DNA of 64,000 bases from an uncultured Rhodospirillaceae bacterium (GCA_913020445.1 CAJWAR010000004.1:21608-85607); one strand, 5' to 3'; numbered from the stretch's first letter, positions 33,034-48,927 are shown. Program-made: numbers and translations. Notes: generated by a model from the sequence alone, not told the origin.

Positions 33034-33167
33034 TGTTATATCCCCATTCTAGATAAAGTCTGAACCATCGATTAGTGGTTCGAATTGCCTAATCATAATA
33101 GAGCAATAATAATTTGCCTACATTAGAAATGTACGTAATTCAAAAAAAATTTGACGTCACGTGTTTT

Positions 33168-33842: not shown

Positions 33843-33844
33843 AC

Positions 33845-35249: not shown

Positions 35250-35779
35250 TTGATTTCTCCTTTTATCAGCAGGGTTCCTTGGGCTTCTTGAGAGGCGTGG
35301 GAGATCGACATCAAGGCGCGCAGCAAAGCCGCCAAGGGAAGACCAACAACCGTCGTCATAAAAGCCAGGCTGAAATGTTCGGTCAGGCTTCGAATGATGG
35401 TTTGAACGGTTTCCGGCGTTAGCTCTTGACCGGCCAGCGAGCCAATGCCGAGACTGATGCCAAGCAAGGTAAAAGTCAGCGCTAAAGTCGAGACGCCGTT
35501 AGCCGCGTGTAAGCCGCTTTCCAGCCACAGCTCGGCATCTTGCAGTCGCTTCCGGCGATGGGCCTCACTAAGTCGCACCCAGCAGAAAAAAACCAGAAAC
35601 ACCAAGCTGCTGAGCATCACCAAAAAGGCACTGCCAAATACTTTGAGCGCCCAGCCGGTAATTTCACCGACGCCGAAACTGGTTGTTGCAACCAAGACAG
35701 CGACAGTAATTACCAACAGGCCCAAAATTAGACTAAGACTGCGCGAACCGGCATGGATGAAGCTAAAGATTGCCTGCAT
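35246..35779 (-). CDS. MotA/TolQ/ExbB-like proton-channel family protein (tentative)
   Basis: Four hydrophobic helices. The C-terminal part, LALTFTLLGISLGIG...AFMTTVVGLPLAALL, resembles the MotA_ExbB signature (LGLLGT ... TTxxGLxxA). Confidence 0.5.
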   Translation of the reverse strand: MQAIFSFIHAGSRSLSLILGLLVITVAVLVATTSFGVGEITGWALKVFGSAFLVMLSSLVFLVFFCWVRLSEAHRRKRLQDAELWLESGLHAANGVSTLALTFTLLGISLGIGSLAGQELTPETVQTIIRSLTEHFSLAFMTTVVGLPLAALLRALMSISHASQEAQGTLLIKGEIK

Positions 35780-35787
35780 AATTCCCT

Positions 35788-36177
35788 CTAGCGCCGCCGT
35801 AAGGATGCGGATAAAACGCTTTGCGTCGTCATGCCAAGCTGGTTTAACCAGGCATCGACAATCGAGATATTTTTCTCGGTCGCGCCATGAACCAAAAACG
35901 TCAAATCATAGTTTTCAAAGGCTTGGCGCACCGTCGGCGTGTTGCGTCCGGTTAGTTTTTTGTCGCGCAACACCATGCGCTCGAGATCAATCAGCCGCAC
36001 TTTGGCGCTGGCTATTTTCGCCTGACGATCTTTGATCGCGATCTCGGGGTTCAACATTGTATTGATGGTAAGCGCGCGTTCGCGCTCGAGATTTTCCAGA
36101 GTTCCGGCTTCGGCCAGCGCTGAAAAGCTAACAACAGCTGAAAAAACAAATGCGGTGATGATTGGTTTGGTTTTCAT
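35788..36177 (-). CDS. Exported hypothetical protein
   Basis: Signal peptide MKTKPIITAFVFSAVVSFSALA. Confidence 0.6.
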   Translation of the reverse strand: MKTKPIITAFVFSAVVSFSALAEAGTLENLERERALTINTMLNPEIAIKDRQAKIASAKVRLIDLERMVLRDKKLTGRNTPTVRQAFENYDLTFLVHGATEKNISIVDAWLNQLGMTTQSVLSASLRRR

Positions 36178-36203
36178 TTTGGTTCTCCTAAAATTACCAA
36201 AGA

Positions 36204-37106
36204 TTAGTTGGTTAAAAAGTAATCGACGGCTTTGGCCGGTGATGAGGCCGACGGTCTATCGCTATCCGCCATCTCGGCATCCAAGGCCTGTTCTGAAAGC
36301 GCCAAGGCATCGAAGGCCACCAGCTTGGCCATATAACCAAGGATGGTTTCTTCCTGCTCAAGCACCGCAAGCTCGGCCTGTGCATCGGCCAATAATTGGC
36401 GGATATAATCTTCCTTGCTGAGCGGCTGGCCATCGACTTGCACGGATGTATTCATGCGGTGGCTTTGAATGCGGCTGGCGAGCTTTTCTATCGCCGCCAA
36501 ATTTTCCGCATATTTCACCGTGTATCTACTTTCCGGCACGACCGAGACTTGGAACAGTTTCATATCAACCTTGGCCAGCGATGATTTGAACCGCTGGCGG
36601 GCACCTTCCTGGCGGTTAACCAGCTCTTGGCGCACCGGTGTCATGCCGCGGTTTTTCTCCGCCATGCGCTTAAGCATGCGCTCGAACAATCGATGCTTGG
36701 TCCTAAGGTGCTTTTTGCGGTAGCGGTTTTTTTCGGAAATCAGCTCGAGAAAATTCCGTTTTTCGCCGAGAAACTGATGACGAAGTTCGAGCTTCAATTC
36801 GCCCTCCGCCTCTTCGATGGCATCCCGCAAATCCGCCAAAGTCTGACTTTTAAGACCGGTTTTTTCTTCCGTTTTTTGAATTGCCAGGCCGAGGGTTGAT
36901 TCCTGAAAATCATGGTCCAACGACTTTTTCAAATAGGTCGCCGGCAGTTTGATCAGCTTTTCGCTCGATTTAGGGTTCCAGGCCGGGATGTTGTTAGCAT
37001 CAGCGGCGGCATGAACCGAGGATGAGCTGGCGAGCAACGCGCCTACAGCTATCACAGCCACCGAAGCCAAAAGTTGAAACCGTATAGTTTGTTTATTATA
37101 CGACAT
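36204..37106 (-). CDS. Exported, long alpha-helical (coiled-coil) hypothetical protein
   Basis: ATG 37106 follows AAGGAG. Signal peptide ...LLASSSSVHA. The mature part is rich in heptad-like charged helices. Confidence 0.6.
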   Translation of the reverse strand: MSYNKQTIRFQLLASVAVIAVGALLASSSSVHAAADANNIPAWNPKSSEKLIKLPATYLKKSLDHDFQESTLGLAIQKTEEKTGLKSQTLADLRDAIEEAEGELKLELRHQFLGEKRNFLELISEKNRYRKKHLRTKHRLFERMLKRMAEKNRGMTPVRQELVNRQEGARQRFKSSLAKVDMKLFQVSVVPESRYTVKYAENLAAIEKLASRIQSHRMNTSVQVDGQPLSKEDYIRQLLADAQAELAVLEQEETILGYMAKLVAFDALALSEQALDAEMADSDRPSASSPAKAVDYFLTN

Positions 37107-37120
37107 CTCAGTTTTCTCCT

Positions 37121-37675
37121 TTAATTGTGTTTCCAATAGCGCACCCGACGAAGCTCGGATTTCACCCGGCTGCTGACATTGGCAGCCGACAGCTCGCCGA
37201 TGGCGGAGCGATCCCGAAGGCCTAAGAAAACTTCCATCGTGTCGGTAAAGGACGAACCGTCGGGGAAATAGAGATCTTGTCCGGGAAAGGCTTTTTTCAT
37301 TTTGCTGAGATTGACGCGGGCTTTGGCGATATCACCGCCTTTGAAATAATTTTGCACGCTAAGAGCGACCGCACGAACGCGCTCCTCCTCGCCGACTTTG
37401 GCCGCTTCCGGCCCAAGCTCCGCCTCACATTTATCCAATAACCTGGCGCTGGCGATATAGCGGGCAGCGGAAGATTCCGTTTTGGCTTTACGGTCCATTT
37501 CCAGCGCATCATCCCGGCACGAGCGATATTCCCGCATGGCTGAGATTTCGGCAAAGCGCGCCTCCCGGTAGCCAATACCCTCACGCGCAGTTTCGGTGGT
37601 GTAAAGATTACAGGCGCCCAGCGTAGCCGTGGCAGCCATTACGAAGGGTAGGCGTAAATTACGAAGATTGAACAT
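37121..37675 (-). CDS. Putative helical lipoprotein; first gene of cluster operon A
   Basis: ATG 37675 follows GGAGGA. Lipobox TLGAC. Confidence 0.65.
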   Translation of the reverse strand: MFNLRNLRLPFVMAATATLGACNLYTTETAREGIGYREARFAEISAMREYRSCRDDALEMDRKAKTESSAARYIASARLLDKCEAELGPEAAKVGEEERVRAVALSVQNYFKGGDIAKARVNLSKMKKAFPGQDLYFPDGSSFTDTMEVFLGLRDRSAIGELSAANVSSRVKSELRRVRYWKHN

Positions 37676-37715
37676 CAGCGTTCCTCCAGTTTGCAAAGTT
37701 AATTACTTAGCTTTG

Positions 37716-37742
37716 CTATGGCGGGGCCAGAGGCGGTTTTTT
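37716..37742 (-). promoter_or_regulatory. Cluster motif copy 1, promoter-like, upstream of operon A
   Basis: Coding-strand sequence AAAAAACCGCCTCTGGCCCCGCCATAG ends 40 nt before ATG 37675. It contains TGGCCC-N5-TAGCA, which has sigma-54 -24/-12 spacing. Confidence 0.55.
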
Positions 37743-37761
37743 TGAAAAAACGGGAAAAAAT

Positions 37762-37858
37762 AAAAAAAAAGCAGGCGGCCAACGATTTTTAAGAGGCCAG
37801 CACGCCTGCAAGTTGGGTACAGGTGGTACAAGGGAGGCACCTGGGAGGATTTTTATCA
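37762..37858 (-). ncRNA. Candidate small RNA with two CCUCCC (anti-Shine-Dalgarno-like) motifs
   Basis: It lies between motif copy 2 (37867-37892) and a terminator. The terminator is the hairpin GCAGGCG..GGCC / GGCC.GCCTGC at 37771-37809 followed by U9 at 37762-37770. An upstream hairpin CAGGUG-CCUCCCUUGUAC-CACCUG (37820-37843) shows CCUCCC in its loop. A second CCUCCC lies at its 5' base. No ORF is present. The 5' end is a guess. Confidence 0.45.
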
Positions 37859-37866
37859 CTCCCTGT

Positions 37867-37892
37867 CTATGGCGGGACCAGAGGGGGTTTTT
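37867..37892 (-). promoter_or_regulatory. Cluster motif copy 2, upstream of the sRNA candidate
   Basis: Coding-strand sequence AAAAACCCCCTCTGGTCCCGCCATAG. Confidence 0.5.
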
Positions 37893-38063
37893 ATGACGTA
37901 CTGGAAAAAAATGCCGTCAGGCGCGGGCCCATCCTAATTTTCTGGCCGCGTATCCATCTTCAAGAAGTTTATTCACCACAGAGTTCACAGAAAACACAGA
38001 GGATTTGGGAACGCCCCGACTCGTCACCGTAATTCGATTAAATGATCAGCGAGGCATAACCAT

Positions 38064-38759
38064 TTAGTTAATTTTCGCGTGCAACGGATCGGTAAATGCA
38101 TGTCCCCTGGCTCGGTAGGCTCTGATCGCTTGAGCAATTTCAGCGGAGCGGTGTTTCAAACCTGTCCGGATCCAGGGATATCCGGAAAGATCAACCAATT
38201 TGGTCATCGTCGCCCCTTTAAATTCGTTAGGGAAATTAGAGACGATCGTACTGGACATCAGGATCGCAGCAACTCTCCCGTGTTTAAGCATTCTGACTTG
38301 GCTATCAAATTTGGGAACATTCAAAATATTTTTTCTGCCCCGCACCAATTTCATCTGCCAACGGGCTCCCTCATTTATGGCAATTGACTTGCCGGCAAGG
38401 CTCTGCAGTGAGGTAACTTTCGGGTCAAAAGAAATTAACAATCCAGATCCATTGGTCAGCGGCTCTTCTATCATATGCAAATAATCTCCGGCAAACTTCT
38501 GATAAGCTCTGGCTCGGAGTATCAGGCCATCTAATTTACCACTTTTGATATCACGGGTCGCCCGCTTAAAGGGCGCATTGACTATTTCAATGCAAATACC
38601 CGCCTCTTTCAATGCTTGGACAAAATTACGTTTAATGTTTTGAAATACTGCTGTGGACTGATTTAAATCAGGATATTTGAGACATTGACCAGCTTGAATC
38701 GATGTAGTTGGAATGAGGAAATAACAAAGAAAAAAAATCAAGATGATGGCAAAACGCAT
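38064..38759 (-). CDS. Periplasmic solute-binding-protein-like protein (SBP family 3 type), orphan
   Basis: Signal peptide ...TTSIQA. Pattern FKRATRDIKSGKLDGLILRA fits family-3 SBP lobes. No permease or ATPase gene is adjacent. Confidence 0.5.
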   Translation of the reverse strand: MRFAIILIFFLCYFLIPTTSIQAGQCLKYPDLNQSTAVFQNIKRNFVQALKEAGICIEIVNAPFKRATRDIKSGKLDGLILRARAYQKFAGDYLHMIEEPLTNGSGLLISFDPKVTSLQSLAGKSIAINEGARWQMKLVRGRKNILNVPKFDSQVRMLKHGRVAAILMSSTIVSNFPNEFKGATMTKLVDLSGYPWIRTGLKHRSAEIAQAIRAYRARGHAFTDPLHAKIN

Positions 38760-38972
38760 AATTTTTTACTTACCCAATAGATATTAACCAATCTCCAATA
38801 TGGGGATTAATTGAAGCGATTCAAGAAAATGGTGTGCTCGGATTAATGCCGCGGAAATACAACATGTTGCACTTCGCTCGTGAGTCCACAGAGGCAAGTC
38901 AAGTCCGGGGTGACGAGTTTTCCTGTTGAAGTAGGTTCATTATATATGACGACAGAAGTAAATGTGTCCTAG

Positions 38973-40505
38973 CTACTCAATCACCGTAACCACAAGCGAC
39001 GCTTCCGAGATCGCCGCGTAAGGTAATTTGCGGAATAAAGCCGACAGATTATCAACGCGGGTTCGGCTCATTGGCTTTAACGATCTGCCCCGCAAATCCC
39101 GTGGCAAATCCTCAGTAACATCACGACTGGCGCCGAAACATTTGACTAATTCCCGACCCACTGGCGCGGTTACTTTGAGATCAAACGGAAATAATTTTTT
39201 ACCGGGTATCGAGTGGATTTTGCCACCCGCTAACCGGGGCGATTTAAACTCGCGCCAAAAATGCGGGTTAGGGAATATTTGGATCACCTTGCCATCGGCT
39301 TGATGGTAAAAGCAGTAGGTCCAGGCATCTTCACCAAGGCGCAACAACAGAGTCATTTCATCGCCGATTTGATAGACCGGATTTCTGCCTCTGGTACTGG
39401 TTAAATTAAATTCAAACGGCCCCAAGCCATCATTTTCGCGTAAATGCTCAAAATCGCCAGCCGGTTTGATCCGAATGCCTTTGACTGCACTAATCGGCAT
39501 GCGACCGGACCAGGAAAGTGTATAGCCGGCGGGATTTTTGAGGGTCAGCTTTAACTCGATAACCCGGTTGAGCACCCAATATCGGCCGGTCAGCAAATAC
39601 GAAGATTGAATTTTAGAAAATTTGTTCTCCTTTAGCGGCATGCCATCAAGCTCCCGCATCAAACGAGACTCTTTGATTTTTAAACTACGCCCGGTGAGCA
39701 CGTTCGAATACGCCGCCTGCAGCGCCGTGACAAACCGGTCTTTAAAAAAAGCCGCAAAGGGTGGCTGCAACCCAGTTTCCTGATAATGCAAACCGCCGAC
39801 CCGTACTTCCGAAATATCGCGTAAATTATCGGCAAAAAAGTTGGAGGCCTGCGACACCGCCTGGTCGACGGTCAATAAATCATTGAGGGTGGATTTATCC
39901 TGCGCCTTAAGCGGCAATATCACCCGCGCGGTTTGGGCGAGTATGGTGCCATCCATGCGCGCCACCTTATAGCCCAATGAAAGCCCGCCTTCGACCAAAC
40001 GCATGCGGCCTTGAATAAGAGCGTCAACATTACGCGCTTTGGCCATCAAGGCGGCGATCGGATCATCGTCCTCATCCAACGCACCGGTTGCCGACATATC
40101 GGCGATAATGGCTTTCAAAGCATCGCGGGCGACAATCTCGATATTACCTTCTTGGGTTTTGAGCAATGCCGCCAGCAAGCGGTCATTAAATCCGTCGGCA
40201 ATGCTTTTGGCGATGGGAATTTTGTCTTTATGAAACGGCCAAACGGCAAACCGCAATTTTTTCCCGCCGATATAGGCGTAGTCTTTTTTGAGATAGGCTT
40301 TTTCACTTGAAGAATTCATCACAGGTGACTGGTTTCTTGACGTCGAATGGATGCCGGACATAATTTCCTTGGCGAATTCTTCAAAGACATTTCCGGATGG
40401 CTCGGCGACCGGCGATTGGGCTTGGGCTTGGGTTGGGACCGCGGCATTGGCAACAACCAAACCAGCAACAATTAATGCGGAACATATGCCAGAAACGTGT
40501 TTCAT
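38973..40505 (-). CDS. Exported protein with an LpoB/CsgG/FlgO-like N-terminal region and a DUF4384-like C-terminal domain
   Basis: ATG 40505 overlaps the upstream stop as ATGA. Signal peptide ...VPTQAQA. C-terminal YQIGDEMTLLLRLGEDAWTYCFYHQADGKVIQIFPN recalls DUF4384. Confidence 0.6.
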   Translation of the reverse strand: MKHVSGICSALIVAGLVVANAAVPTQAQAQSPVAEPSGNVFEEFAKEIMSGIHSTSRNQSPVMNSSSEKAYLKKDYAYIGGKKLRFAVWPFHKDKIPIAKSIADGFNDRLLAALLKTQEGNIEIVARDALKAIIADMSATGALDEDDDPIAALMAKARNVDALIQGRMRLVEGGLSLGYKVARMDGTILAQTARVILPLKAQDKSTLNDLLTVDQAVSQASNFFADNLRDISEVRVGGLHYQETGLQPPFAAFFKDRFVTALQAAYSNVLTGRSLKIKESRLMRELDGMPLKENKFSKIQSSYLLTGRYWVLNRVIELKLTLKNPAGYTLSWSGRMPISAVKGIRIKPAGDFEHLRENDGLGPFEFNLTSTRGRNPVYQIGDEMTLLLRLGEDAWTYCFYHQADGKVIQIFPNPHFWREFKSPRLAGGKIHSIPGKKLFPFDLKVTAPVGRELVKCFGASRDVTEDLPRDLRGRSLKPMSRTRVDNLSALFRKLPYAAISEASLVVTVIE

Positions 40506-41788
40506 GGTGTGATCTTGTGTCTCCACGTCAAAACCGAAAATCCTTTCTGAGCTAACGTTTTGACCGCCTGATTCCAGTCGCTTTGCCTTTTGAGCCATTG
40601 CATTTCGGCGGCGACGGGTTCCTTGCCGATAATCGCATTGAGGCGGTATTGCAGCGGTTCCGCCAACCTGCGCGGTACATCAATCGTCCACGACTGCTTG
40701 CCCTTAGTCTTAGTAATGCCGGAAAGCAGCTTTGGTTTAACATTGCCGCGGACAAAGGCCCCGCTTTCAATATCGAGATTGGCGGCAATAAACTTGGATT
40801 TTGCCCCGAGATCAAAGTCAAATTTCAGACCACACAGATTTTTCAAGGTACTGACGGCAATATCACCATTGGAACTTTGGATCGGCTGAGTTTCAGCTTC
40901 AATGCGGCCAAAATGCACTTTCGCGCAGGTGCCCCCTGCCGGTGGCCGGCGTTCCGACACGGTAATTGTCTCGGCTTTACGTGGTTGAACCACTTTTTTT
41001 TCAGCCAATTTCTTAGGCTTTGGCGGTGGCGGTAATTTCTCGGCAGACTTTTGCACCGCTTTTTCCGCAGCAGGCTTAACCGCCTCTTGATTGACCCCGC
41101 TCATATAGGCCCACAGGATGAGAACAGAGATCAGCAAAGTGCCGATTATCGATGCCACCGCGCTGCTGGTACCGGTCTGGCTTTTTGCCGAGCCGGCAAT
41201 TGGCTGAGCATCTGTCGGCCCCAAACCCAACTGAGCAATGAGTTCGGCAGTACTCGAAAGACCTACAAGCTCAACACCTTCAGGCAATTCAGCTTGGTCA
41301 ATTTCAACTAGATTTTCAGCCTGTGGTACAAGGGCTAATACCGGCACGCCGGCGTCATGCCAATTATCAAAAAAAGTCTTCGATGCCGCTACTTTTTCAG
41401 CGATATGGCCAACCGAGACGACGCCTAAATCATAATCAACTTCACCGGTGAGCCAAATTACTTGATCGGGTGAAGCGTCTTTATCGGCAAGCTCGGCACT
41501 TTCGCTCGCGACGACCGCATGGGCGGCAAAGACCCCCAATTGCCAGCTTTTGCCGACGCCGATGCTTTCGGTAACATCCATGCGGAAAGAGGCATAATCG
41601 AAAGGGCCAAATTCCCGCTCAATTACCCCGCTGCCGCGTTTGACGAAATCGTCATAATCACCGCTGATGGGCAAAATATCCGAGCCACGCTTGAGGCAAA
41701 CCATAGAATGCGGCGCATATTCGGGCGTCAGGCGGTCGATTTGAGCCGGACCGCCTGTTGTCGCTACAAATATTGCTAGTCTTTTCAC
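40502..41788 (-). CDS. Membrane protein with a cytoplasmic Lon-protease-like (S16, Ser-Lys dyad) domain, one TM, a Pro/Lys linker and a periplasmic domain
   Basis: GTG start overlapping the upstream stop as GTGA. The N-terminal domain runs parallel to the Lon proteolytic domain: GKSWQLG (cf. GPSAG), LTGEVDYDLGVVSVGHIAEKVAAS (cf. MTGEI..G.V.PIGG.KEK..AA), VLALVPQAEN. TM IIGTLLISVLILWAYM. Confidence 0.5.
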   Translation of the reverse strand: MKRLAIFVATTGGPAQIDRLTPEYAPHSMVCLKRGSDILPISGDYDDFVKRGSGVIEREFGPFDYASFRMDVTESIGVGKSWQLGVFAAHAVVASESAELADKDASPDQVIWLTGEVDYDLGVVSVGHIAEKVAASKTFFDNWHDAGVPVLALVPQAENLVEIDQAELPEGVELVGLSSTAELIAQLGLGPTDAQPIAGSAKSQTGTSSAVASIIGTLLISVLILWAYMSGVNQEAVKPAAEKAVQKSAEKLPPPPKPKKLAEKKVVQPRKAETITVSERRPPAGGTCAKVHFGRIEAETQPIQSSNGDIAVSTLKNLCGLKFDFDLGAKSKFIAANLDIESGAFVRGNVKPKLLSGITKTKGKQSWTIDVPRRLAEPLQYRLNAIIGKEPVAAEMQWLKRQSDWNQAVKTLAQKGFSVLTWRHKITP

Positions 41789-42330
41789 CGAATAAAGGCT
41801 TCCGTTTTTGGATCACTTAACAGACGTACCAAATCTGCATCCCGGTCGGCAATGATTTGCGCCACACCGTCACGGATTTTAGGCAGCGGGAAACGGCTGC
41901 AATTGGCTTCAACATCACACACCACCAACGTCGTTGGCGTGACCTTCTCGTTGCCCGAAAGCTCGACAATCACATATACCTGGTTTGGCTCAGCCCGGGA
42001 TGGCTCCATTCGAATACGGCAGCCTTTGCCTTCGCGGGACAAAATATCGTCGGACTTTTTCGCTGAACTGGCCGCCATCGCTTCCGGTACATAATAGACC
42101 GCATTTTTCTCCAGCATGTCGCGATAGATCCGGCGCAAAGCCAAGTTTTCGCCCAAGGCTTTCTCAACAGTTTCGTTTTCCGCACCATTGGCATAAGCAA
42201 ACAAGGCCGACGGCGAAACAGATGATAGTTTTTCACTTGAGCTCAATAATTCATCGATCTGCGACAATTCAGAAAATTTTTGTTTTGCCGCTTGAAGTTT
42301 TTCATCACCTGGAATTTTATAATCACTCAT
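41785..42330 (-). CDS. Cytoplasmic hypothetical protein (181 aa)
   Basis: ATGA overlap with the upstream gene. No signal peptide and no recognisable motif. Confidence 0.55.
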   Translation of the reverse strand: MSDYKIPGDEKLQAAKQKFSELSQIDELLSSSEKLSSVSPSALFAYANGAENETVEKALGENLALRRIYRDMLEKNAVYYVPEAMAASSAKKSDDILSREGKGCRIRMEPSRAEPNQVYVIVELSGNEKVTPTTLVVCDVEANCSRFPLPKIRDGVAQIIADRDADLVRLLSDPKTEAFIR

Positions 42331-43970
42331 TGGACGTCTCCATAGAGCAGATTAAACTGATTGCTAAAGACCTGTTTGTCTTGATCAAACTTGCTGTTGA
42401 GGTCTTCACCGTCTTTATCCAGCGCCGCCATGCGCGTCAAAAATGTTTCGAGTTGGCCCGATATACTCAGCAGCGCCCCGGCACCCATCCGGAACCCCTC
42501 AATGCCGTCGGGATCTTCAAGCATATCTTCATTAAACCCTTTCCGGGTAAGTTTGCTAAAAGCGTCTACGGCATCTGCCATGAAATCGGAACTCATCTCG
42601 ATGTCGTCCAGATTGTCATTATGGCGGGCTGCTTCAAAAACGCTATCTGGATTTTGCGCGCCAAAGGCGACAATATTATCACCCAAATCAGCCGCATCCT
42701 GTCCGGCGAGAACAAAGTATGTCGCCTTTTGCAATTGACGGACATGGGCCAGGATCGTTTGAAACTGCTCGCGTTTATCATCGTAAGCCATCGCATCACG
42801 GCAATCGAGGCGTTGGCGAACCGAAGTTTCGCCGCGCTTGACCTGCAAATCAGTTGTTATCGCAGTTTGGATCGAGCCAAAGACCTCCAATTGCATGAAG
42901 GAGCGCGGCAAACGGCCGGCATAGGGCCCGTATTGCATCAACGCTTCGATGGGTTTGCGCTCACCTTCTTTTTTAAAGAATTTAATTTGATTAGCGGGCT
43001 CTGCATCGAGAATATTCAACGGTGATTGCCAATCGCCTAAACCATCCAGGCCGTCACTTTGATCGTCGGGCTCAATTTCCTGAGCCTCAAAATCAGTGCC
43101 GATTATGGCGGCATTTTCAATGGTGTCCTGCTGGTCAGCTTCTTCCAGGGCGCGCATGAAGTTAACAAAGCCATCGAACACGGTCTTATAGGCGCGAAAT
43201 TCGCCAACCGTGGAAAACTCCAGCCAGAAATCCAAAACTGCCGGATCATCAATACAAATTTGCCCATCTCTTTCTCCGGCATTTTCCCGAGCTTTGAGAA
43301 AACCGAAAATCCGGTCAAATTTTTCGTCATGCTGAGCCCGGGTTAAATGTTCCCGGCGGTATTTTCTGAGCCGTGCCGATATTCTGTTACTGGCGGTTTT
43401 GATCGCTTCAAGATCAATTGACGCTTGCGACAAGTCATCGAAAATCTCATTAAGTTCGGTATAGAAGTCATAGTTATCCAAACCGGTGAGAAATTCATAA
43501 AGCGCCGCCAAAAACGGCATGCGGCCAAAGCGCACTTCAAAGCCATCATCGTCATAGTAAACGCCAATGCCATTTTCGGTGCGCTCGAAACCCGGTTTCA
43601 GCCAGTCACCAAACTCAAGCTTTTCATCAAGGGCGGCGCGATAGACCGCCGGCAGTGCTTTTTCAACACCGAGAAAAAATAAAGCGCGTTCGTCACTGCC
43701 GCCCTCGCTCAACGCATCAATGGCGCTGACCAGATGGCAAAGCTCAAAAATCGGGGCATCTTTGTGTGGCCCGCCGGCGGAACCGACAATGAACTTGGCC
43801 AGCCACACCATCACCGGGGCGTGGCTGTATTTAGTGCTGCCGTCAGATGCCGTCGCTTCGCCAATTGCCTTAAAATCGGCCAATAAGGGGCCGGAAGCCC
43901 CTGACCGGGTAATTGTCGAAACTGCATCATCCATCTGGTCATTACTCGTAATAATAGTCTGGGTTTCCAT
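42327..43970 (-). CDS. Cytoplasmic acidic hypothetical protein (about 547 aa)
   Basis: Long ORF with no TM, no Walker A and no motif I recognise. ATG 43970 (METQT) follows AGGA; TTG 43997 is an alternative start. Confidence 0.6.
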   Translation of the reverse strand: METQTIITSNDQMDDAVSTITRSGASGPLLADFKAIGEATASDGSTKYSHAPVMVWLAKFIVGSAGGPHKDAPIFELCHLVSAIDALSEGGSDERALFFLGVEKALPAVYRAALDEKLEFGDWLKPGFERTENGIGVYYDDDGFEVRFGRMPFLAALYEFLTGLDNYDFYTELNEIFDDLSQASIDLEAIKTASNRISARLRKYRREHLTRAQHDEKFDRIFGFLKARENAGERDGQICIDDPAVLDFWLEFSTVGEFRAYKTVFDGFVNFMRALEEADQQDTIENAAIIGTDFEAQEIEPDDQSDGLDGLGDWQSPLNILDAEPANQIKFFKKEGERKPIEALMQYGPYAGRLPRSFMQLEVFGSIQTAITTDLQVKRGETSVRQRLDCRDAMAYDDKREQFQTILAHVRQLQKATYFVLAGQDAADLGDNIVAFGAQNPDSVFEAARHNDNLDDIEMSSDFMADAVDAFSKLTRKGFNEDMLEDPDGIEGFRMGAGALLSISGQLETFLTRMAALDKDGEDLNSKFDQDKQVFSNQFNLLYGDVQ

Positions 43971-44018
43971 TTTTCGTTTTATCCTGTTTAAGTTCAACCC
44001 TAAATGTCGTTCTGATGC

Positions 44019-45020
44019 TTAACCGTTGCGCCAATAATTGCGGCGTCGGGGAGAGGATGAAAAGTCGTCAAGCGTGTGAGCGGCTCTAAGACGGCGGTCT
44101 TCCAGCGTTGAATTGCTATTCGCATAACGGTCATATCGCCAAGGGCGATAAGAACGATCCCGCCGATATCTCCGACCTCTGTTATTTCTTCCAGAAATCC
44201 ATGAGGTCCGAATGCGAGTATTAGATCCTGCGTAACGGAGATCGAAACGACCATTAAAGTAAGAACTAAACTGATCATACTCCCGCCAGGCTGCTTTCTG
44301 TCCGGATTTGCGGCAAGGTCTGTCGAAATCATTCCAAGCGTAATCACGGCCTCTATTGCGCCCAAAACGATTCCAGCGCCGGTTCTGATTCAGGGGGACC
44401 CAGCGGTCATTGTCGCGATTATCCTTTTCGTCATCCCAGCGAACTCGTGGCTGATCGTTGCTGCGCTTTTTCCAGCGCTGCTCCCATTTGTCGCCTTTAT
44501 CGTCGTCATTAAAGGCGATGGCCCAAACTTTGTTCTGTTCGGCATAGCGCTGCTGCCAGCGTTGCACCAGGCGCACATAGGATTTGGTAAATTCATGGGG
44601 TTCGGCGTTGCTGCCCTTACCCTTCAAGGTGCCGCCATTGTAATGCGAAAGTGCCAGCTCCCAATTGCCACCATATTGGCGGCGCAGTTTGGCCAGATAG
44701 TCGATGCCAAGCTGAATGTTAAGCCGGGCCTGCCAAAGCTCGTCTTTATCAACACCGAATTCATCCTTGGCGGTTTTCGGCATTAACTGCATGACACCAC
44801 GCGCCCCTGCCGTGCTCAGCGCGGTTGGATTAAAATCCGATTCGACTTTAGCCACAGCCAGCGCCAAAGCCGGCGGCACCGAAGAGTTTTGTGCTTCTTC
44901 GACAACTATTTTTTTTATTTCAGCGCGCGACACAGCGAGCGCCGGATTGATAATGGCAATAATCGCAATTGCGGCGATAAGGCCAGCAAGACTAAGTCTC
45001 AGAAAGTTTTGCAATGTCAT
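44019..45020 (-). CDS. SLT-family lytic transglycosylase with a long Arg/Trp/Asp/Asn-rich C-terminal tail
   Basis: Signal/anchor LSLAGLIAAIAIIAIINPALA. SLT core ALALAVAKVESDFNP...GARGVMQLMP...YNGG. The tail of roughly 180-190 aa is low-complexity (RWKKRSNDQPRVRWDDEKDNRDNDRW...RRYRRDRSYRPWRYDRY). Confidence 0.8.
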   Translation of the reverse strand: MTLQNFLRLSLAGLIAAIAIIAIINPALAVSRAEIKKIVVEEAQNSSVPPALALAVAKVESDFNPTALSTAGARGVMQLMPKTAKDEFGVDKDELWQARLNIQLGIDYLAKLRRQYGGNWELALSHYNGGTLKGKGSNAEPHEFTKSYVRLVQRWQQRYAEQNKVWAIAFNDDDKGDKWEQRWKKRSNDQPRVRWDDEKDNRDNDRWVPLNQNRRWNRFGRNRGRDYAWNDFDRPCRKSGQKAAWREYDQFSSYFNGRFDLRYAGSNTRIRTSWISGRNNRGRRYRRDRSYRPWRYDRYANSNSTLEDRRLRAAHTLDDFSSSPRRRNYWRNG

Positions 45021-45466
45021 TTTATTTTCTCCTTTAATGTCATTAGCCAGGCGTCGTTCAGGGTTGTGACAATCAAATTTGCATTGCCGAACCGGTCCCG
45101 AACCGAGATTGCCTGCCGCAAAGGTAATTCCGGCGCGACGGCCAGAAATTGAATTTTCTCGGATTGAAGTTGATGTGACGCCAAGGGGTTGAGGCCGGCA
45201 TCATAGAGTTGGCCTTTGTAAAAAACTGCCATTTTCTCCGGTTGGATGGCCGTTACACTGCCGCTCTTCCCATCTTGTGATTTCGTCGAACTGGCTCGCT
45301 TGATTGAAACGCCCGAAATATCGAGCAACACGTCTGCAGTCTTTTTGATCTTCCCAACCGTTCCGGTGCTCATCGACACCATGGTCAACACCATCAAGCT
45401 GAAAAACGCCATTGATAGCGCCAGAGCAATTTCAACCAGGGCATTATTTTCTGAACCAGAAGGCAT
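45017..45466 (-). CDS. MotB/ExbD/TolR-like single-TM protein (tentative); first gene of cluster operon B
   Basis: I prefer ATG 45466 (MPSGSENN); the track ORF start at 45610 would bury motif copy 3. The TM NALVEIALALSMAFFSLMVL has an acidic residue near its cytoplasmic end, as in stator/ExbD proteins. A periplasmic domain of about 100 aa follows. Confidence 0.45.
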   Translation of the reverse strand: MPSGSENNALVEIALALSMAFFSLMVLTMVSMSTGTVGKIKKTADVLLDISGVSIKRASSTKSQDGKSGSVTAIQPEKMAVFYKGQLYDAGLNPLASHQLQSEKIQFLAVAPELPLRQAISVRDRFGNANLIVTTLNDAWLMTLKEKIK

Positions 45467-45507
45467 GTCGCTATTTTCCCACTCGCGATGATTAACTGAT
45501 GCCTTAT

Positions 45508-45533
45508 CTATGCGGGGCCCAGAGCAGGTTTTT
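45508..45533 (-). promoter_or_regulatory. Cluster motif copy 3, upstream of operon B
   Basis: Coding-strand sequence AAAAACCTGCTCTGGGCCCCGCATAG ends 41 nt before ATG 45466. Confidence 0.5.
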
Positions 45534-45586
45534 CGCCGGCGGCGAAGAAAAATTGCATTTTTATAAAATTTTTTTTGAGTGCGGAG

Positions 45587-45612
45587 AAAAAACGCCTCTC
45601 GCCACGCCATAG
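45587..45612 (+). promoter_or_regulatory. Cluster motif copy 5, upstream of the S1 protease gene and divergent from copy 3
   Basis: AAAAAACGCCTCTCGCCACGCCATAG ends 54 nt before ATG 45667. Confidence 0.5.
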
Positions 45613-45666
45613 CTCCTCACAAGCGCCTTTCGAGGGGTGCACAACAATCTTATGTGAGGTACAGAA

Positions 45667-46506
45667 ATGACTAATTTTAAAAAGGTGGCTGCGGCCACAC
45701 TAACGGGCGCCGTTGTTTTAATGAGTGGTACTGGGGTAAAGGCAGGAGGGTCTGGAACAGGATTTTTTGTTAACCCCAACGGATACATCGTCACCAACAA
45801 CCACGTCGCCATCGGAACTCTGCGATTTAAAGATGGTACGCAAATTCCATTTCCCTGCCGATCTATCACAGCCAAAATCGGACACACTACTTACCGGGCA
45901 AAACTGTTAGCAAGAGACAAACAAAACGATTTGGCACTTCTGAAAATTGATCTAGGAGAACAAAAACAACGGCACTTTGTTGCTTTGAAGTCAAATCAAT
46001 CGGTCAACGGCTGGACGAACCTTGGTGGCGTTTTAGGTCTACAAACCGGGATTAGCAATGGCCACAATAGAATATCCAATTCATCTTTCAGCTATGTTCG
46101 ATTAGCGAAGAATCAGGTCACCCACGGTGACATTGTTCATGTATTCGGCTACCCACTCGGAAATTTCATTTCTTCCCAAATGAAAATTGCGACGGGAGCG
46201 GTAAATGCAACCATGGGATTTGACGATAACTCCAGTAGATTTCAACATGACGCTGCCGCCTATCCCGGGAACAGCGGCAGCCCCGTAATGGATAAGGCCG
46301 GTAATCTCGTTGGTGTTCATGTCTCGGGAGCTGGAATTAACACCAGGCTTAAATTTGCCATTAAAGGAAATGTCTTGAAGGAATTCCTGAAGCTTAATGA
46401 TGTGCCGTTTGACGAAGTTCAAAATGACACACCGGTTTCCGCTCAGGAATTATACCGACAAGCCAAACACTATATCACCTACATGAATTGTTACGACTAC
46501 CATTAA
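45667..46506 (+). CDS. Secreted trypsin-like (S1) serine protease
   Basis: Signal peptide ...GTGVKA. Triad contexts TNNHV, NDLALLKI and GNSGSPV. Confidence 0.8.
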   Translation: MTNFKKVAAATLTGAVVLMSGTGVKAGGSGTGFFVNPNGYIVTNNHVAIGTLRFKDGTQIPFPCRSITAKIGHTTYRAKLLARDKQNDLALLKIDLGEQKQRHFVALKSNQSVNGWTNLGGVLGLQTGISNGHNRISNSSFSYVRLAKNQVTHGDIVHVFGYPLGNFISSQMKIATGAVNATMGFDDNSSRFQHDAAAYPGNSGSPVMDKAGNLVGVHVSGAGINTRLKFAIKGNVLKEFLKLNDVPFDEVQNDTPVSAQELYRQAKHYITYMNCYDYH

Positions 46507-46531
46507 CGTCTTCAACCCCTCCTTTTCCTAG

Positions 46532-46565
46532 CCCCGCCCACTTCAACGAGTGCGGCGGGGTTTTT
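46532..46565 (+). terminator. Rho-independent terminator after the protease gene
   Basis: CCCCGCCCAC / GTGCGGCGGGG stem followed by TTTTT. Confidence 0.7.
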
Positions 46566-46645
46566 CTGTGCCGTTTTTTCACCACTTTTTTGGGCTAAAT
46601 TTGGCAAAAATGTGCATAACAGGTAATATTTTTCAAGTTCTTCAG

Positions 46646-46671
46646 AAAAACGGCCTCTGGGCCCGGCATAT
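46646..46671 (+). promoter_or_regulatory. Cluster motif copy 4, upstream of 46723-47613
   Basis: AAAAACGGCCTCTGGGCCCGGCATAT ends 51 nt before ATG 46723. Confidence 0.5.
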
Positions 46672-46722
46672 CGAGGTTAGGTAATCGATCTTTATTGTTT
46701 TAAAAGTTAGGGAGTAACCTCG

Positions 46723-47613
46723 ATGAAACGCATTTTTACTATTTTAATCGCTGCCTTGACCATCACGTCCGGCACCATCTTTAACAACCCGGCACTTGCC
46801 GCAGAACAACCTAATATTATGATTATGGGCGAAGATGGCGACCGGGATTCGGTGCCGCGCAACAGCCGCGTTTTTAAACGCGTTTTGAATGCACTCGCTA
46901 ATCAACTGCATGATGAAGGCTTTGACGTCTTTGATGAAACGGCGCTGACATTGGATAATTATGTGCAAGGCCGGATCCGGCGCTCTGATGACGAAATTAT
47001 CGATATTGCCCGCTCTGTTGACCGGCCGCCGATCGATGTCGCTGTCATTTTCGGCATTTATGCCAGTTCCAATCGCACCAGCTACACCACCAAAATCCGC
47101 ACCCGCATCGAAGGCCGTATGTTGAACGTTCGATCCGGCCAGCGGCTCGGCAATTTTGAAGTGGATATCCCCCGCGCCTTCAATGCGCCGCACGATTGCA
47201 ACCGGGAATGTTTGCTTGAAACAGTGGGCCGCAAGGCACGCAGTCTGTCCCAAGACCTTGGCGCCGTGCTGACTGAAAAATTAGCGTATATGGTTGATCG
47301 TGGCCGCCGCTTCGCGTCTGAAAATCGCAACAGTTATCTACCTACAGCCTACCGCCTCGCCTTTAGTGGCTTCAATGAAGACGATATTGACGGCATTGAA
47401 GAGTATATCGTCGCCTTCAAAGGCTATATCCATCATCGCCCAACCAATACATCTAAACGTCATGCCGATTATTGGTATGAAACCGATAGCGGCAGCGCCC
47501 GGCTCAATCGTAATTTGCGCCGCATGCTCGATCATTTAGGCGTGCGCGGCAGAGTGTCCTTTGCCGGCAATACATTCAATGTCGACAAAATCACCTTTAG
47601 AAGCCGCCGGTAA
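46723..47613 (+). CDS. Exported hypothetical protein
   Basis: AGGGAG RBS. Signal peptide ...NNPALA. The two-domain look is reminiscent of LpoB/FlgT-type periplasmic proteins, which is only an impression. Confidence 0.6.
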   Translation: MKRIFTILIAALTITSGTIFNNPALAAEQPNIMIMGEDGDRDSVPRNSRVFKRVLNALANQLHDEGFDVFDETALTLDNYVQGRIRRSDDEIIDIARSVDRPPIDVAVIFGIYASSNRTSYTTKIRTRIEGRMLNVRSGQRLGNFEVDIPRAFNAPHDCNRECLLETVGRKARSLSQDLGAVLTEKLAYMVDRGRRFASENRNSYLPTAYRLAFSGFNEDDIDGIEEYIVAFKGYIHHRPTNTSKRHADYWYETDSGSARLNRNLRRMLDHLGVRGRVSFAGNTFNVDKITFRSRR

Positions 47614-47635
47614 TAAATTAATATTTTCAGAATAA

Positions 47636-47667
47636 AAGGCGGTGCCGTTTTTAGCATCGCCTTTTTT
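47636..47667. terminator. Bidirectional terminator between convergent genes
   Basis: 10-bp stem AAGGCGGTGC/GCATCGCCTT (one G-U pair) with an 8-nt loop and a T-run. An A-run lies on the other side. Confidence 0.7.
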
Positions 47668-48901
47668 ATAGTCGCAAGACGTCGCCTTCTTTAGGCGCGA
47701 AGCAATTAGTTGAAGACTTTCGTTTTTTCAACTCCGCCTGAGCCAGTTTGAATTTTTTATCGATAGCTTTGTCGTCTTGGTCGGGATCATGATGAAAGAG
47801 ATATAAATTTTTTACCTCTGCCCGATCAGCCAGATCAACAACTTGGCTAACACAGGAATGCCCCCACCCCACTTTGGTCTCATATTCATCATTCATGTAG
47901 GTACAATCTGTGATCAATGTTTCAGTACCACGAACAAAATCCGCAAGCTTTTCAACATAGCTTGGATTGTGAGAGGGATCGCTTTCTAGGAAAAGTTCAT
48001 TATCGGTGATATAGCAGATCGAGCGTCCATGATATTCGATCCGGTAGCCGAGACAATATCCCGGATGGCTCAACAGCATGGTTTTAACGACAATGTCGCC
48101 GAATTCGATGGTCTCCTCGCGTAGGTCACGGAAATATACCCGCGAGGCAAATTCTTTAAGGGTGATCGGAAAATAAACGCCATCCATTTGAGCTGAGATC
48201 AATTCCCGCATACTGCGATCGGCATTGGCGGCGCCCAGGATTTCGAACTCGTTGCCCTGTATATAGAGCGGCACAAAAAACGGCAGCGCGTTGATATGAT
48301 CCCAATGCGGATGCGAAATAAAAATCTTGGCTTCAATATTAGCCCGGCTACTGGCAAGCAAGTGGTTGGAAAGTTCTTTGATACCCGACCCGGCATCAAA
48401 AATGAAAAAGTCGCCGCGGACAAATTCCATGGAAACACATGACGTGTTGCCACCGTACCTCAAGGAGCGTTCTCCCGCTACCGGCAGCGTGCCGCGAACA
48501 CCCCAAAAAGCCAGCGTAATATTATCTTCGAGTATCTCCGACAGTGCCAGAATAAAAGATTTAGCATCGATGGGTTTATTGATGAACCCATCCGCACCCA
48601 ATTCAAACGCCCGTTTTCTATCAAATTCATAGGTCTTGGCTGAAACGATTACGATTTTCAGAGCCGGAATATTCTTATTGGTTTTAATCTCATGACACAG
48701 TTCCAGGCCATCTTTGCCAGGCATCATAATATCGATTAAAACACAGTCGGGTTTTTCGTCCTCGATTCGGGACATCGCTGCATCACTCGACGTTTCACTA
48801 ATTACGTCATAGTTAGCTGCCGCTAAAATCGACGAGGCCAGTTTTACAAACCCGGCATCATCATCGACAACAAATATTTTTGCATTTTTTGTCATAGGCA
48901 A
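47666..48901 (-). CDS. Response regulator receiver fused to a metallo-beta-lactamase-fold hydrolase
   Basis: REC (FVVDDD, DCVLIDIMMPGKDG, SAKT...KP) followed by an MBL fold with SHPHWDH. Confidence 0.8.
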   Translation of the reverse strand: MPMTKNAKIFVVDDDAGFVKLASSILAAANYDVISETSSDAAMSRIEDEKPDCVLIDIMMPGKDGLELCHEIKTNKNIPALKIVIVSAKTYEFDRKRAFELGADGFINKPIDAKSFILALSEILEDNITLAFWGVRGTLPVAGERSLRYGGNTSCVSMEFVRGDFFIFDAGSGIKELSNHLLASSRANIEAKIFISHPHWDHINALPFFVPLYIQGNEFEILGAANADRSMRELISAQMDGVYFPITLKEFASRVYFRDLREETIEFGDIVVKTMLLSHPGYCLGYRIEYHGRSICYITDNELFLESDPSHNPSYVEKLADFVRGTETLITDCTYMNDEYETKVGWGHSCVSQVVDLADRAEVKNLYLFHHDPDQDDKAIDKKFKLAQAELKKRKSSTNCFAPKEGDVLRL

Positions 48902-48927
48902 CCCGTTGAGATGTCTTTGATTTTTAT

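Follow-up and report, generated by a model that had tools for sequence, protein, structure and literature searches.

The window analysed here, a 64,000-nt stretch of DNA from an uncultured Rhodospirillaceae bacterium, carries four overlapping genes on its minus strand, which raise the question of whether a membrane-held relative of the Lon protease can pass a signal from the envelope to the cytoplasm. The sequence-only reading of this locus had described two cytoplasmic proteins, a bitopic protein with a Lon-like domain and an exported protein, and had suggested a signalling device based on regulated proteolysis. The four genes, delimited by ORF analysis and direct reading of the sequence, are the following.

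42327-43970, minus strand: gene A, 547 aa
41785-42330, minus strand: gene B, 181 aa
40502-41788, minus strand: gene C, 428 aa, GTG start
38973-40505, minus strand: gene D, 510 aa

Start and stop codons overlap by 4 nt at the three junctions: ATGA at 42327-42330 (A/B), GTGA at 41785-41788 (B/C) and ATGA at 40502-40505 (C/D). ORF coordinates and direct reading agree on this coupling, and independent Tara gene calls yielded four protein sequences identical to A, B, C and D. Among related genomes, the B stop and the C start overlap by 4 nt at 32 of 65 loci and a candidate 4-nt A/B overlap is present at 37 of 63, start codons having been chosen in a way that favours overlaps. Plus-strand ORFs also exist inside A-D (e.g., 41985-43025); the homologues found are those of the minus-strand proteins.

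The operon and its envelope cluster

Genes A-D do not form a unit of their own. They come last in an operon that also encodes, ahead of them, a small transmembrane (TM) protein and SLT, and this operon lies within a conserved envelope cluster of ca. 14 genes and ca. 14 kb. The cluster is shared by Alteromonas, Colwellia, Terasakiella and marine Rhodospirillales, and hardly any of its genes has a functional annotation. The surrounding features are listed below; counts out of 73 refer to genomes, or their loci, that carry the C domain.

44019-45020, minus strand: SLT-domain lytic transglycosylase (Pfam SLT, 86 bits), 48 nt upstream of A in the same operon
45017-45466, minus strand: small bitopic protein of the membrane, 149 aa when started at an internal ATG of an ORF that reaches 45610
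33168-37696, minus strand: linked conserved module of seven genes, with synteny in alpha- and gammaproteobacteria
46723-47613, plus strand: exported 296-aa protein, accompanying the cluster in 32 of 73 loci

The SLT gene, whose product has a flagellar assembly lytic transglycosylase as its best NCBIfam match, is joined to its upstream gene by ATGA at 45017-45020 and is kept upstream of A in 41 of 73 loci. That upstream gene, present in 37 of 73 loci, had been called ExbD-like, a label that found no support: no ExbD/TolR match was returned by Pfam for the 149-aa protein or for 18 family members, by NCBIfam, or by a search of the family profile against the PDB. Its resemblance to ExbD/TolR is confined to the layout: the TM segment lies at the N-terminus and contains an acidic residue that never varies (Glu E12 in alignment A4).

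The seven-gene module encodes a lipoprotein, a periplasmic coiled-coil protein, a small periplasmic protein, a 4-TM MotA/ExbB-like protein, two proteins with a TM segment plus a Pro-rich linker, and a lipoprotein labelled GNA1162-like from a weak match. The MotA/ExbB-like protein (35246-35779) scores 13.9 bits against PF01618 (MotA/TolQ/ExbB), below the cut-off of 22.9; weak MotA_ExbB matches occur in 7 of 16 members of its family (best E 0.016), and PDB sequences gave no match. The remaining genes of the module had no Pfam or NCBIfam match, and the exported 296-aa protein, often present in two copies per locus, had no family match in searches that included both collections.

Comparison of loci and Pfam searches revealed no conserved σ factor, regulator or DNA-binding protein in the cluster, and no conserved site-1 or site-2 protease homologues were found there. 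An RpoH-like σ gene (29891-30775) lies outside the conserved cluster, and a trypsin-like gene stands beside it only in the window and two related loci. No Rfam families were detected in 33000-48000. A repeated intergenic motif was considered as a cluster-specific element and rejected, since one copy precedes dprA; it was also rejected as a σ54 promoter (-24 GG, -12 GC), since the GG is not conserved among the copies. The earlier suggestion that proteolysis might act back on a shared cluster promoter finds no support in these results.

Such surroundings invite the reading that C is a maturation or quality-control protease of an envelope machine (SLT, MotA/ExbB-like protein, TonB-like proteins and lipoproteins), which, while that machine is put together, would process or remove A, B or other cytoplasmic assembly factors without any signalling. 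In line with it, A-B-C and the envelope module are linked, in an order that varies, both in alpha- and in gammaproteobacteria; the operon contains an SLT transglycosylase, an enzyme often seen in loci for the construction of trans-envelope complexes; and a conserved regulator is lacking. However, A or B can accompany the Lon-like domain without the envelope module, which is missing within 10 kb in about half of the loci, though many of these contigs are short; moreover, the domain is repeatedly fused to signalling or sensor modules (kinase, FHA, nSTAND1 + WD40/TPR, FGE-sulfatase). We therefore view a pure maturation role as possible but rather unlikely.

A Lon-type domain in a bitopic membrane protein

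The product of gene C (40502-41788, minus strand) is a bitopic inner-membrane protein in which a Lon-like domain is connected, through a TM helix and a Pro/Lys linker, to a β-sandwich in the periplasm. Its parts map as follows; the codons of the three conserved sites were checked.

41219-41788, minus strand: Lon-type proteolytic domain, cytoplasmic, residues 1-190 (Foldseek, profiles, hhalign)
41546-41548, minus strand: codon of S81
41444-41449, minus strand: codons of T114-G115
41393-41395, minus strand: codon of K132
41108-41164, minus strand: TM helix, residues ca. 209-227 (hydropathy 2.24; helix 210-228 in the model)
40508-40969, minus strand: periplasmic β-sandwich, residues 274-427 (strands in the model, pLDDT >90)

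The AlphaFold model of full-length C has a pLDDT of 87. In a Foldseek search against the PDB, the top four matches were all Lon domains (1xhk, 1rr9, 1z0e and 7p0b; E 3e-6 to 8.5e-5, sequence identity 14-16%), as the earlier assignment of a Lon-like N-terminus would predict, and nothing else was found at E<=0.001. The match to 1xhk had an E value of 3.3e-6 and a target TM-score of 0.62. Sequence profiles of the domain also matched the Lon domains of LonB, LonC and LonA, with A. fulgidus LonB as the best Lon chain of the PDB (E 5e-4) and LonC at E 0.015; CalpL chains were matched weakly (E 0.41). As modelled, residues 1-190 of C have the Lon protease fold. Pfam and NCBIfam Lon models did not match C even at E<=1; since Pfam Lon_C is among them, the C family must be very divergent. 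It comprises ca. 1059 representative clusters at E<=1e-10.

The motifs picked out earlier in C map onto the Lon Ser-Lys dyad. In an hhalign comparison with a manually entered sequence of the E. coli Lon P-domain, the probability was 77% and S81 paired with S679, T114-G115 with T704-G705 and K132 with K722; in deposited PDB chains, the conserved Lys of C aligns with the A. fulgidus LonB lysine of VGGVTQK. The pattern by which C loci were collected included neither S81 nor K132, and Ser81 is kept at 73 of 73 loci and Lys132 at 70 of 73; taken singly, the residues aligned with the Lon dyad and TG motif are conserved in 70-73 of 73 genomes. Judging from these alignments, the S81/K132 dyad and the helper T114 of C occupy Lon-equivalent positions.

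Lon-like domains can be non-proteolytic, as in RadA/Sms and ComM, and the domain of C, if likened to these, might be a catalytically inert scaffold for oligomerisation or binding, by which A and B would be kept close to the membrane. Consistent with this are the blindness of Pfam Lon_C to the domain, its identity of only 14-16% to Lon domains and the invariant residues Y45, R69, W82, Q83 and H90, which have no Lon counterpart. Yet practically all members, across fusions and in two proteobacterial classes, retain Ser, Lys and the helper Thr where the alignment places them, and because such a pattern is unexpected for a pseudo-enzyme, we give an inert scaffold little credence.

Like LonA, the archaeal membrane-anchored LonB and LonC (MEROPS S16), C has the proteolytic fold and the positions of Ser, Lys and the TG-motif Thr. 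It differs from canonical Lon in having neither an AAA+ unfoldase module nor a Pfam Lon_C match: no AAA domain was found in C by Pfam, and the model consists only of the 190-aa domain, TM helix, linker and β-sandwich. In contrast to canonical Lon, the protease domain stands at the N-terminus, ahead of the TM helix and the periplasmic domain. C probably processes its targets at specific sites and is not a degradation machine.

The bitopic topology proposed earlier stands, with one predicted TM helix after the Lon-like domain, then the Pro/Lys linker and the periplasmic domain, and a TM segment occupies the same position in nearly all C homologues of ca. 400 aa. In the periplasmic domain, a Cys288/Cys319 pair is kept in 54-55 of 62 sequences, the remainder being gaps from other domain types. 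The β-sandwich is predicted to be Cys-paired, disulfide-containing and sensor-like. Its weak similarity to the DUF4384 region of D (E 0.011) is not independent, because the alignment used (A1) includes DUF4384-fused members.

Partners and fusions of the Lon-like domain

Features of the partner proteins are as follows.

42064-42081, minus strand: Ala-rich motif of B, A84-M-A-A-S-S89, a proposed cleavage or recognition site (conservation in homologues)
40422-40505, minus strand: predicted signal peptide of D, a signal-peptide-like N-terminal segment ending in AQA before Q
39132-39377, minus strand: DUF4384 domain of D, residues 377-458 (Pfam PF14326, E 4.4e-12)

Profile searches detected A in 66 and B in 69 of the 73 genomes carrying the C domain. 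The usual gene order is A-B-C, with B almost always directly upstream of C. Matches to D were found in 19 of 73 loci, about a quarter, and in Terasakiella-type loci the D match falls within C itself, because the periplasmic domain fused to the C of these loci is DUF4384. Of the expected co-occurrence of four genes, the part concerning A-B-C is thus strongly borne out and the part concerning D is not: the conserved core is the trio, and D is an accessory outside it. That D is exported and DUF4384-like agrees with its signal-peptide-like N-terminus and with a Pfam score of 46.3 bits, above the gathering threshold of 27. Its N-terminal part gave only a non-significant FlgO match (E 1.7) and has no similarity to the 296-aa exported protein.

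Proteins A and B are predicted to be cytoplasmic; both are acidic (pI 4.4 and 5.1, respectively) and neither contains a hydrophobic segment. Pfam and NCBIfam assigned no family to A, B or C, and the profiles of A and B against PDB sequences gave nothing consistent, in keeping with the view of A and B as cytoplasmic proteins without known domains. The model of A (pLDDT 86) is mostly helical with a small sheet and matched nothing in fold searches of the PDB and BFVD; none of 121 A homologues carries a Pfam domain, and 54 members of the family searched against Pfam gave nothing consistent. No σ or HTH family was found with Pfam in A, in B or in the conserved neighbours.

Homologues of B are stand-alone proteins of ca. 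165-212 aa, bar one weakest match of 376 aa (P0350, with PF00487), so that no informative fusions come from this family. Mean column identity over 68 homologues is 29%, and the best-conserved feature is the Ala-Ala-Ser motif with an invariant Arg (R99) ten residues past it; within the motif, A87 never varies and A86 is present in 64 sequences, S88 in 55 and S/T89 in 59. By analogy with CalpT, the partner that CalpL cleaves, B may serve the C protease as substrate or adaptor. The motif could alternatively be a binding motif and not the scissile site.

The N-terminal domain of the C type is joined to a wide range of partners: the β-sandwich, DUF4384, a kinase with PG_binding and FGE-sulfatase domains, a periplasmic loop plus FHA, DUF4189, MFS, and nSTAND1 with WD40/TPR. 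In some proteins nothing separates it from a protein kinase or an nSTAND1 NTPase, two kinds of domain that use ATP in the cytoplasm, in agreement with its placement on that side of the membrane. FGE-sulfatase and DUF4384 also replace one another at the C-terminus of a family of proteobacterial Ser/Thr kinases (10.1101/2025.01.12.632604). From the fusions to kinase + FGE-sulfatase, FHA, DUF4384 and nSTAND1 it follows that the Lon-like domain behaves as a cytoplasmic output module. Loci in which C is fused to a kinase or to FHA still have the partners, and a weaker A-like or B-like gene adjoins two of three STAND fusions. The neighbours of STAND-fused homologues, scanned for effector or defence genes, were housekeeping or unknown genes only.

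A possible pathway and its relation to known systems

CalpL belongs to a three-protein set, is activated by oligomerisation and cleaves CalpT inside an Ala-rich sequence, between LAA and A (10.1101/2024.05.08.593097). C is like CalpL in having an ATPase-less Lon-type Ser-Lys protease domain with a sensor domain and in being encoded with two partners, and the CalpT site resembles the Ala-Ala-Ser motif of B, a candidate site. Unlike CalpL, C has no SAVED/CARF domain for sensing cyclic oligoadenylate and no type III CRISPR neighbourhood; a TM helix separates the protease from a sensor located in the periplasm, and its gene lies in an envelope cluster. CalpT (anti-σ) and CalpS (ECF σ) have no similarity to B or A. 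No SAVED, CARF or cas matches were found in C or its neighbours, and the PADLOC CARF_LON match to C is weak, spanning 39 residues (100-138) within the Lon part.

Some members of the C family resemble NLR-like STAND proteins (PMC8195603) in having a Lon-like domain, an nSTAND1 NTPase and WD40/TPR; the C of the window differs in having no NTPase. A text search of PMC8195603 found no mention of a Lon domain, and a full-text literature search did not find a Lon-like domain joined to a STAND NTPase as N-terminal effector. That A-B-C is a conflict or defence module, in which a Lon-like effector protease would respond to attack (sensed as envelope damage by the membrane form and as a ligand by the STAND form), cleave an inhibitor B and activate a toxic A, would fit the effector-NTPase-sensor layout that the nSTAND1 + WD40/TPR fusions share with bacterial NLR-like systems, the weak PADLOC match to the CARF-Lon model and the three-part logic of CalpL-CalpT-CalpS, but is quite improbable given that PADLOC detects no defence system around A-D, synteny with envelope genes is conserved in two proteobacterial classes, the cluster does not stand out in base composition, no known toxin was matched by the fold of A and the STAND-fusion neighbourhoods have no other defence genes.

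Trans-envelope signalling by regulated proteolysis of bitopic anti-σ factors is exemplified by FecR/FecI with TonB-dependent transducers and by RseA/DegS/RseP. C is like these systems in its bitopic form, periplasmic sensing domain, cytoplasmic output, proposed proteolytic switch and link to a Ton-like energy module. It differs from them in that the membrane protein would be the protease itself and not its substrate, and in that the conserved cluster has no σ factor.

Regulated proteolysis by C, with B as candidate substrate, is a plausible reading by analogy with CalpL and the likeliest of those considered; we give about even odds that C is an inner-membrane signal transducer, encoded in an operon with the core trio A-B-C and acting by cleavage. 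In such a transducer, the β-sandwich of C would read a periplasmic or envelope cue, possibly with the help of the exported DUF4384 protein D; the cue may originate in the neighbouring Ton/Mot-like envelope machine. It would gather C molecules and thereby turn on the protease domain, which would cut cytoplasmic B at the Ala-Ala-Ser motif, and this cleavage would free or activate the large cytoplasmic protein A. Pfam, PDB and BFVD searches revealed no recognisable DNA-binding, σ-like or enzymatic domain in A, and so lend the output step no support. The failure of Pfam Lon_C to match C, the lack of a conserved σ factor or regulator in the cluster and the absence of D from most loci also weigh against this reading.

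More tentatively, A-B-C may be an unrecognised modular three-component pathway of marine Proteobacteria, in which an ATP-independent Lon-type domain would be the output of interchangeable sensors (periplasmic β-sandwich or DUF4384, kinase + FGE-sulfatase, FHA, STAND NTPase with WD40/TPR), B would be cut at Ala-Ala-Ser and A, of ca. 550 aa and novel fold, would be released. The membrane form would then report on or control a Ton/Mot-like trans-envelope machine.

C is a previously undescribed membrane protein of a marine bacterium, with a Lon-type head inside and a sensor-like domain outside. To our knowledge, sensor-coupled ATPase-less Lon proteases have so far been described from one setting, that of the CRISPR-associated CalpL. 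C points to a separate protease family of about a thousand sequence clusters without a Pfam or NCBIfam model. Its members couple one kind of protease head to periplasmic sensors, to kinases, to FHA domains or to NTPases of the NLR-like type, and in nearly all cases two family-less partners are encoded alongside. This near-constant company of A and B suggests a new kind of membrane signalling by partner cleavage. S81 and the Ala-Ala-Ser motif offer an entry point into a largely unannotated envelope cluster, and if B is indeed cleaved, the trio would represent a new route for information across the inner membrane.

Four coupled genes and the Lon-like domain of C

The genes A, B, C and D, which had been read from the sequence as a coupled set, are located as follows:

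42327-43970, minus strand, gene A, 547 aa
41785-42330, minus strand, gene B, 181 aa
40502-41788, minus strand, gene C, 428 aa, GTG start
38973-40505, minus strand, gene D, 510 aa

Direct reading of the sequence gave the minus-strand junctions ATGA (A/B), GTGA (B/C) and ATGA (C/D); a fourth ATGA, at 45017-45020, couples the SLT gene to its upstream neighbour. Tight coupling is conserved among related loci, with a 4-nt B/C overlap in 32 of 65 and a possible 4-nt A/B overlap in 37 of 63. All four protein sequences are identical in Tara Oceans gene calls (sample TARA_037, mesopelagic). Together with the ORF calls, these observations confirm the four coupled minus-strand genes. A and B are acidic and contain no hydrophobic segment, C has a single TM segment (residues 209-227), and the N-terminus of D resembles a signal peptide, ending at AQA/Q. 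Pfam DUF4384 matches D at residues 377-458 (46 bits); no match for A, B or C was found in Pfam and NCBIfam scans, and an Rfam scan of the 33-48 kb part of the window found no family.

A homologue search with C retrieved 62 proteins, none of which (0/62) has an annotated N-terminal domain. Residues Y45, R69, S81, W82, H90, G115 and K132 are invariant in their alignment. The AlphaFold model of C is confident (pLDDT 87) and comprises an alpha/beta domain (1-190), a helix (210-228), a disordered Pro/Lys linker and a beta-sandwich (274-427). Comparison of this fold with the PDB at E<=0.001 gave four matches, every one to a Lon proteolytic domain (M. jannaschii 1xhk, E 3.3e-6; E. coli 1rr9; A. fulgidus 1z0e; human LONP1 7p0b). 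Sequences from 64 genomes gave a profile restricted to the N-domain, which matched A. fulgidus LonB (E 5e-4) as well as LonC, Lon2 and many LonA chains, and CalpL weakly. When aligned by hhalign with the E. coli Lon P-domain, the N-domain scored 77% probability (E 2e-5), with G-x-S81 paired to G-P-S679, T114-G115 to T704-G705 and K132 to K722. Deposited A. fulgidus Lon chains independently gave the same lysine alignment.

In the 73 genome loci that carry the C domain, S81 is kept in 73 and K132 in 70. These loci were found with the pattern WQL[GA][VF][FY][AVL]AH; S81 and K132 lie outside it, and W82, Q83, L84, A89 and H90 lie within it, so the invariance of these five is not independent evidence. 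Pfam Lon_C gave nothing for C at E<=1 because the family is too divergent, and no AAA+ module is present on C. Since the Lon fold and the dyad are retained, with no Lon_C match and no AAA+ module, the N-domain is described, from sequence comparison and modelling, as a new ATPase-less branch of the Lon proteolytic fold and not as a member of a curated Lon family.

Predicted topology of C and exchange of its putative sensor modules

Almost all homologues of about 400 aa have one TM segment directly after the Lon-like domain. In the C-terminal domain, the Cys288/Cys319 pair is conserved, which fits a periplasmic disulfide. In other family members a protein kinase or nSTAND1 NTPase comes directly after the Lon-like domain; both are ATP-using, cytoplasmic domains. 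The FHA forms have two TM segments flanking a loop of about 280 residues, which places the FHA domain on the N-domain side. From the TM position, the Cys pair, the fusions and the FHA layout, the Lon-like domain is predicted to be cytoplasmic and the beta-sandwich periplasmic. This bitopic orientation agrees with the sequence-only reading, which, given the fold matches and dyad conservation, was also right about a Lon-like cytoplasmic domain joined through a TM segment to a periplasmic domain.

An exhaustive profile search retrieved 1059 representative clusters of the C family at E<=1e-10. The modules that follow the Lon-like domain vary:

TM and beta-sandwich (C of the window)
TM and DUF4384 (Terasakiella and Magnetovibrio-type proteins)
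kinase, TM, PG_binding and FGE-sulfatase
TM, loop, TM and FHA
DUF4189
MFS
nSTAND1 with WD40 or TPR arrays

This variety suggests that the Lon-like domain behaves as an output domain with exchangeable sensors. Within one family of proteobacterial Ser/Thr kinases, FGE-sulfatase and DUF4384 likewise alternate as the C-terminal module (10.1101/2025.01.12.632604).

The nSTAND1 fusions with a Lon-like N-terminus (L055:9932-14284, L060:9980-14557 and L068:9335-13138) are 1270-1530 aa long and have an NLR-like layout with WD40 or TPR arrays. An A-like gene is found near the fusion in L055 and a B-like gene near that in L060. A 1360-aa protein with Lon-like, Ser/Thr kinase, TM, PG_binding and FGE-sulfatase parts stands in the place of C within the A-B-C cluster at some loci of Phenylobacterium and Alteromonadaceae (L072:4320-8390; L043:2966-7051). 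In the nSTAND1 systems paper PMC8195603, a text search for terms starting with "Lon" turned up no Lon domain, and a full-text literature search for Lon-like or Lon-protease domains with STAND, N-terminal-effector or periplasmic signalling did not find the C family.

Partners of C and the surrounding envelope cluster

The 73 loci come from Rhodospirillales, other Alphaproteobacteria (Terasakiella, Thalassobaculum, Aestuariispira, Curvivirga) and Gammaproteobacteria (Alteromonas, Colwellia, Glaciecola, Paraglaciecola, Halieaceae, Acidiferrobacterales). Culturable carriers include Terasakiella pusilla DSM 6293, Thalassobaculum litoreum DSM 18839, Paraglaciecola hydrolytica S66 and Alteromonas spp. 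By profile HMM, 66 of the 73 loci have A and 69 have B; the order A-B-C is almost constant, and most misses of A or B fall at contig ends. Both genes are retained where C is a kinase or FHA fusion, and weaker A-like or B-like genes adjoin two of the three STAND fusions. D had been taken as part of the same device; as a core component it is unsupported, with matches in 19/73 loci, some of them inside C. In Terasakiella-type loci it is C that contains the match; other loci have D at a different place in the cluster. The fusion argues that D works with the periplasmic part of C, as a putative accessory periplasmic partner.

None of the 121 homologues of A has a Pfam domain, and a Pfam scan of 54 members gave no consistent weak signal. 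The confident AlphaFold model (pLDDT 86, pTM 0.71) is mostly helical with a small sheet, and a fold search in the PDB and BFVD gave no significant match; A may represent a new fold family of >120 members. The B family is poorly conserved overall (mean column identity 29%) and has a sharp motif, P-x-x-A-A-S-S, between a helical N-terminal part and the C-terminal part (PEAMAASS, residues 82-89, in the window). Among 68 homologues A87 is invariant, and A86, S88 and S/T89 are found in 64, 55 and 59, respectively; an invariant Arg follows ten residues downstream of the motif. B homologues are stand-alone small proteins, the sole exception being the weakest match (P0350, 376 aa, PF00487).

A-B-C-D form the tail of an operon that starts with a TM protein gene followed by the SLT gene, and a conserved second module accompanies A-B-C in alpha- and gammaproteobacteria in varying order:

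45017-45466, minus strand, 149-aa TM protein with an invariant Glu within the TM segment
44019-45020, minus strand, SLT transglycosylase
33168-37696, minus strand, second module of seven genes: a lipoprotein; a periplasmic coiled-coil protein; a small periplasmic protein; a truncated, MotA/ExbB-like 4-TM protein (weak similarity in 7/16 members); two "TonB-shaped" proteins that combine a TM segment with a Pro-rich linker; a second lipoprotein, which gave a weak GNA1162-like match
46723-47613, exported 296-aa protein, belonging to the cluster

The gene upstream of SLT had been labelled ExbD-like, a label that finds no ExbD/TolR profile support: no such match to the 149-aa protein was obtained. 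The full ORF extends over 45017-45610 (197 aa), but the likely start codon is the internal ATG at 45466, which gives the 149-aa protein; homologues are 135-173 aa long. SLT aside, family assignment (Pfam/NCBIfam) is nearly absent throughout the cluster. The layout recalls Ton/Tol-type systems, as a resemblance and not as membership, and the second module possibly encodes a Ton/Mot-like machine that has not been described before.

The interval between D and the second module contains a gene for an exported protein like solute-binding proteins (SBP-like; 38064-38759, minus strand), with weak ArtI/ArtJ matches. None of the 73 related loci has this gene, and it was probably inserted into the cluster. 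A divergent gene (45667-46506, plus strand) encodes a trypsin/HtrA-like serine protease (Trypsin_2, 90 bits) without PDZ domains, and adjoins the cluster in just two related loci (L001, L004). The genes that flank the cluster at 47666-49654 (minus strand) encode a fusion of a response regulator with a metallo-beta-lactamase-fold domain, an Hpt-like protein and a single-domain response regulator; they are conserved in the closest relatives only (L001, L005).

A GC-rich motif of about 19-27 nt with an A-run in front, CCTCTGGCCCCGCCATAGC, is repeated in the window:

37715-37733, minus strand
37866-37884, minus strand
45509-45531, minus strand, divergent copy
45595-45613, plus strand
46654-46672, plus strand
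12682-12700, plus strand

Five copies occur at <=3 mismatches, none being expected by chance. In four cluster transcription units the motif ends 40-54 nt upstream of the start codon; one has an extra tandem copy 151 nt upstream. The motif also sits within the N-terminal extension of the 197-aa ORF. In Terasakiella and other loci, related copies directly precede some of the cluster genes, e.g., A, the first second-module gene and the 296-aa gene. A clear sigma-54 promoter was rejected because the GG is not conserved, and cluster specificity because a copy also lies upstream of dprA. Feedback of proteolysis on the cluster promoter, as proposed earlier, is not supported.

Proposed regulated proteolysis and its alternatives

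The closest worked example for C is CalpL, an ATPase-less Lon domain joined to a SAVED sensor, with CalpT and CalpS encoded alongside; its filaments form on ligand, and one subunit then cleaves neighbour-bound CalpT within an Ala-rich LAA/A motif (10.1101/2024.05.08.593097). By analogy, a periplasmic cue would cluster C, the Lon-like domains would cut B in trans at the A-A-S motif, and cleavage of B would release or activate A. Like CalpL, C would be a sensor-coupled ATPase-less Lon protease, and the cutting of a dedicated partner is known for CalpL and proposed for C. What distinguishes C is its bitopic build with a putative periplasmic sensor, its two partners of no known family (A also without known fold) and its place in an envelope cluster, together with relatives that carry STAND, kinase or FHA domains.

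C could instead be a dedicated maturation protease serving the neighbouring envelope machine, which we regard as possible but rather doubtful. That the Lon-like domain is an inert scaffold is improbable, since Ser, Lys and Thr are retained in it. A conflict or defence role of A-B-C, prompted by the STAND fusions, is quite unlikely.

Regulated proteolysis by C, now with B as a candidate substrate, is plausible on the CalpL analogy. A sensor-coupled ATPase-less Lon device is already known from CalpL; what is new is the A-B-C version.
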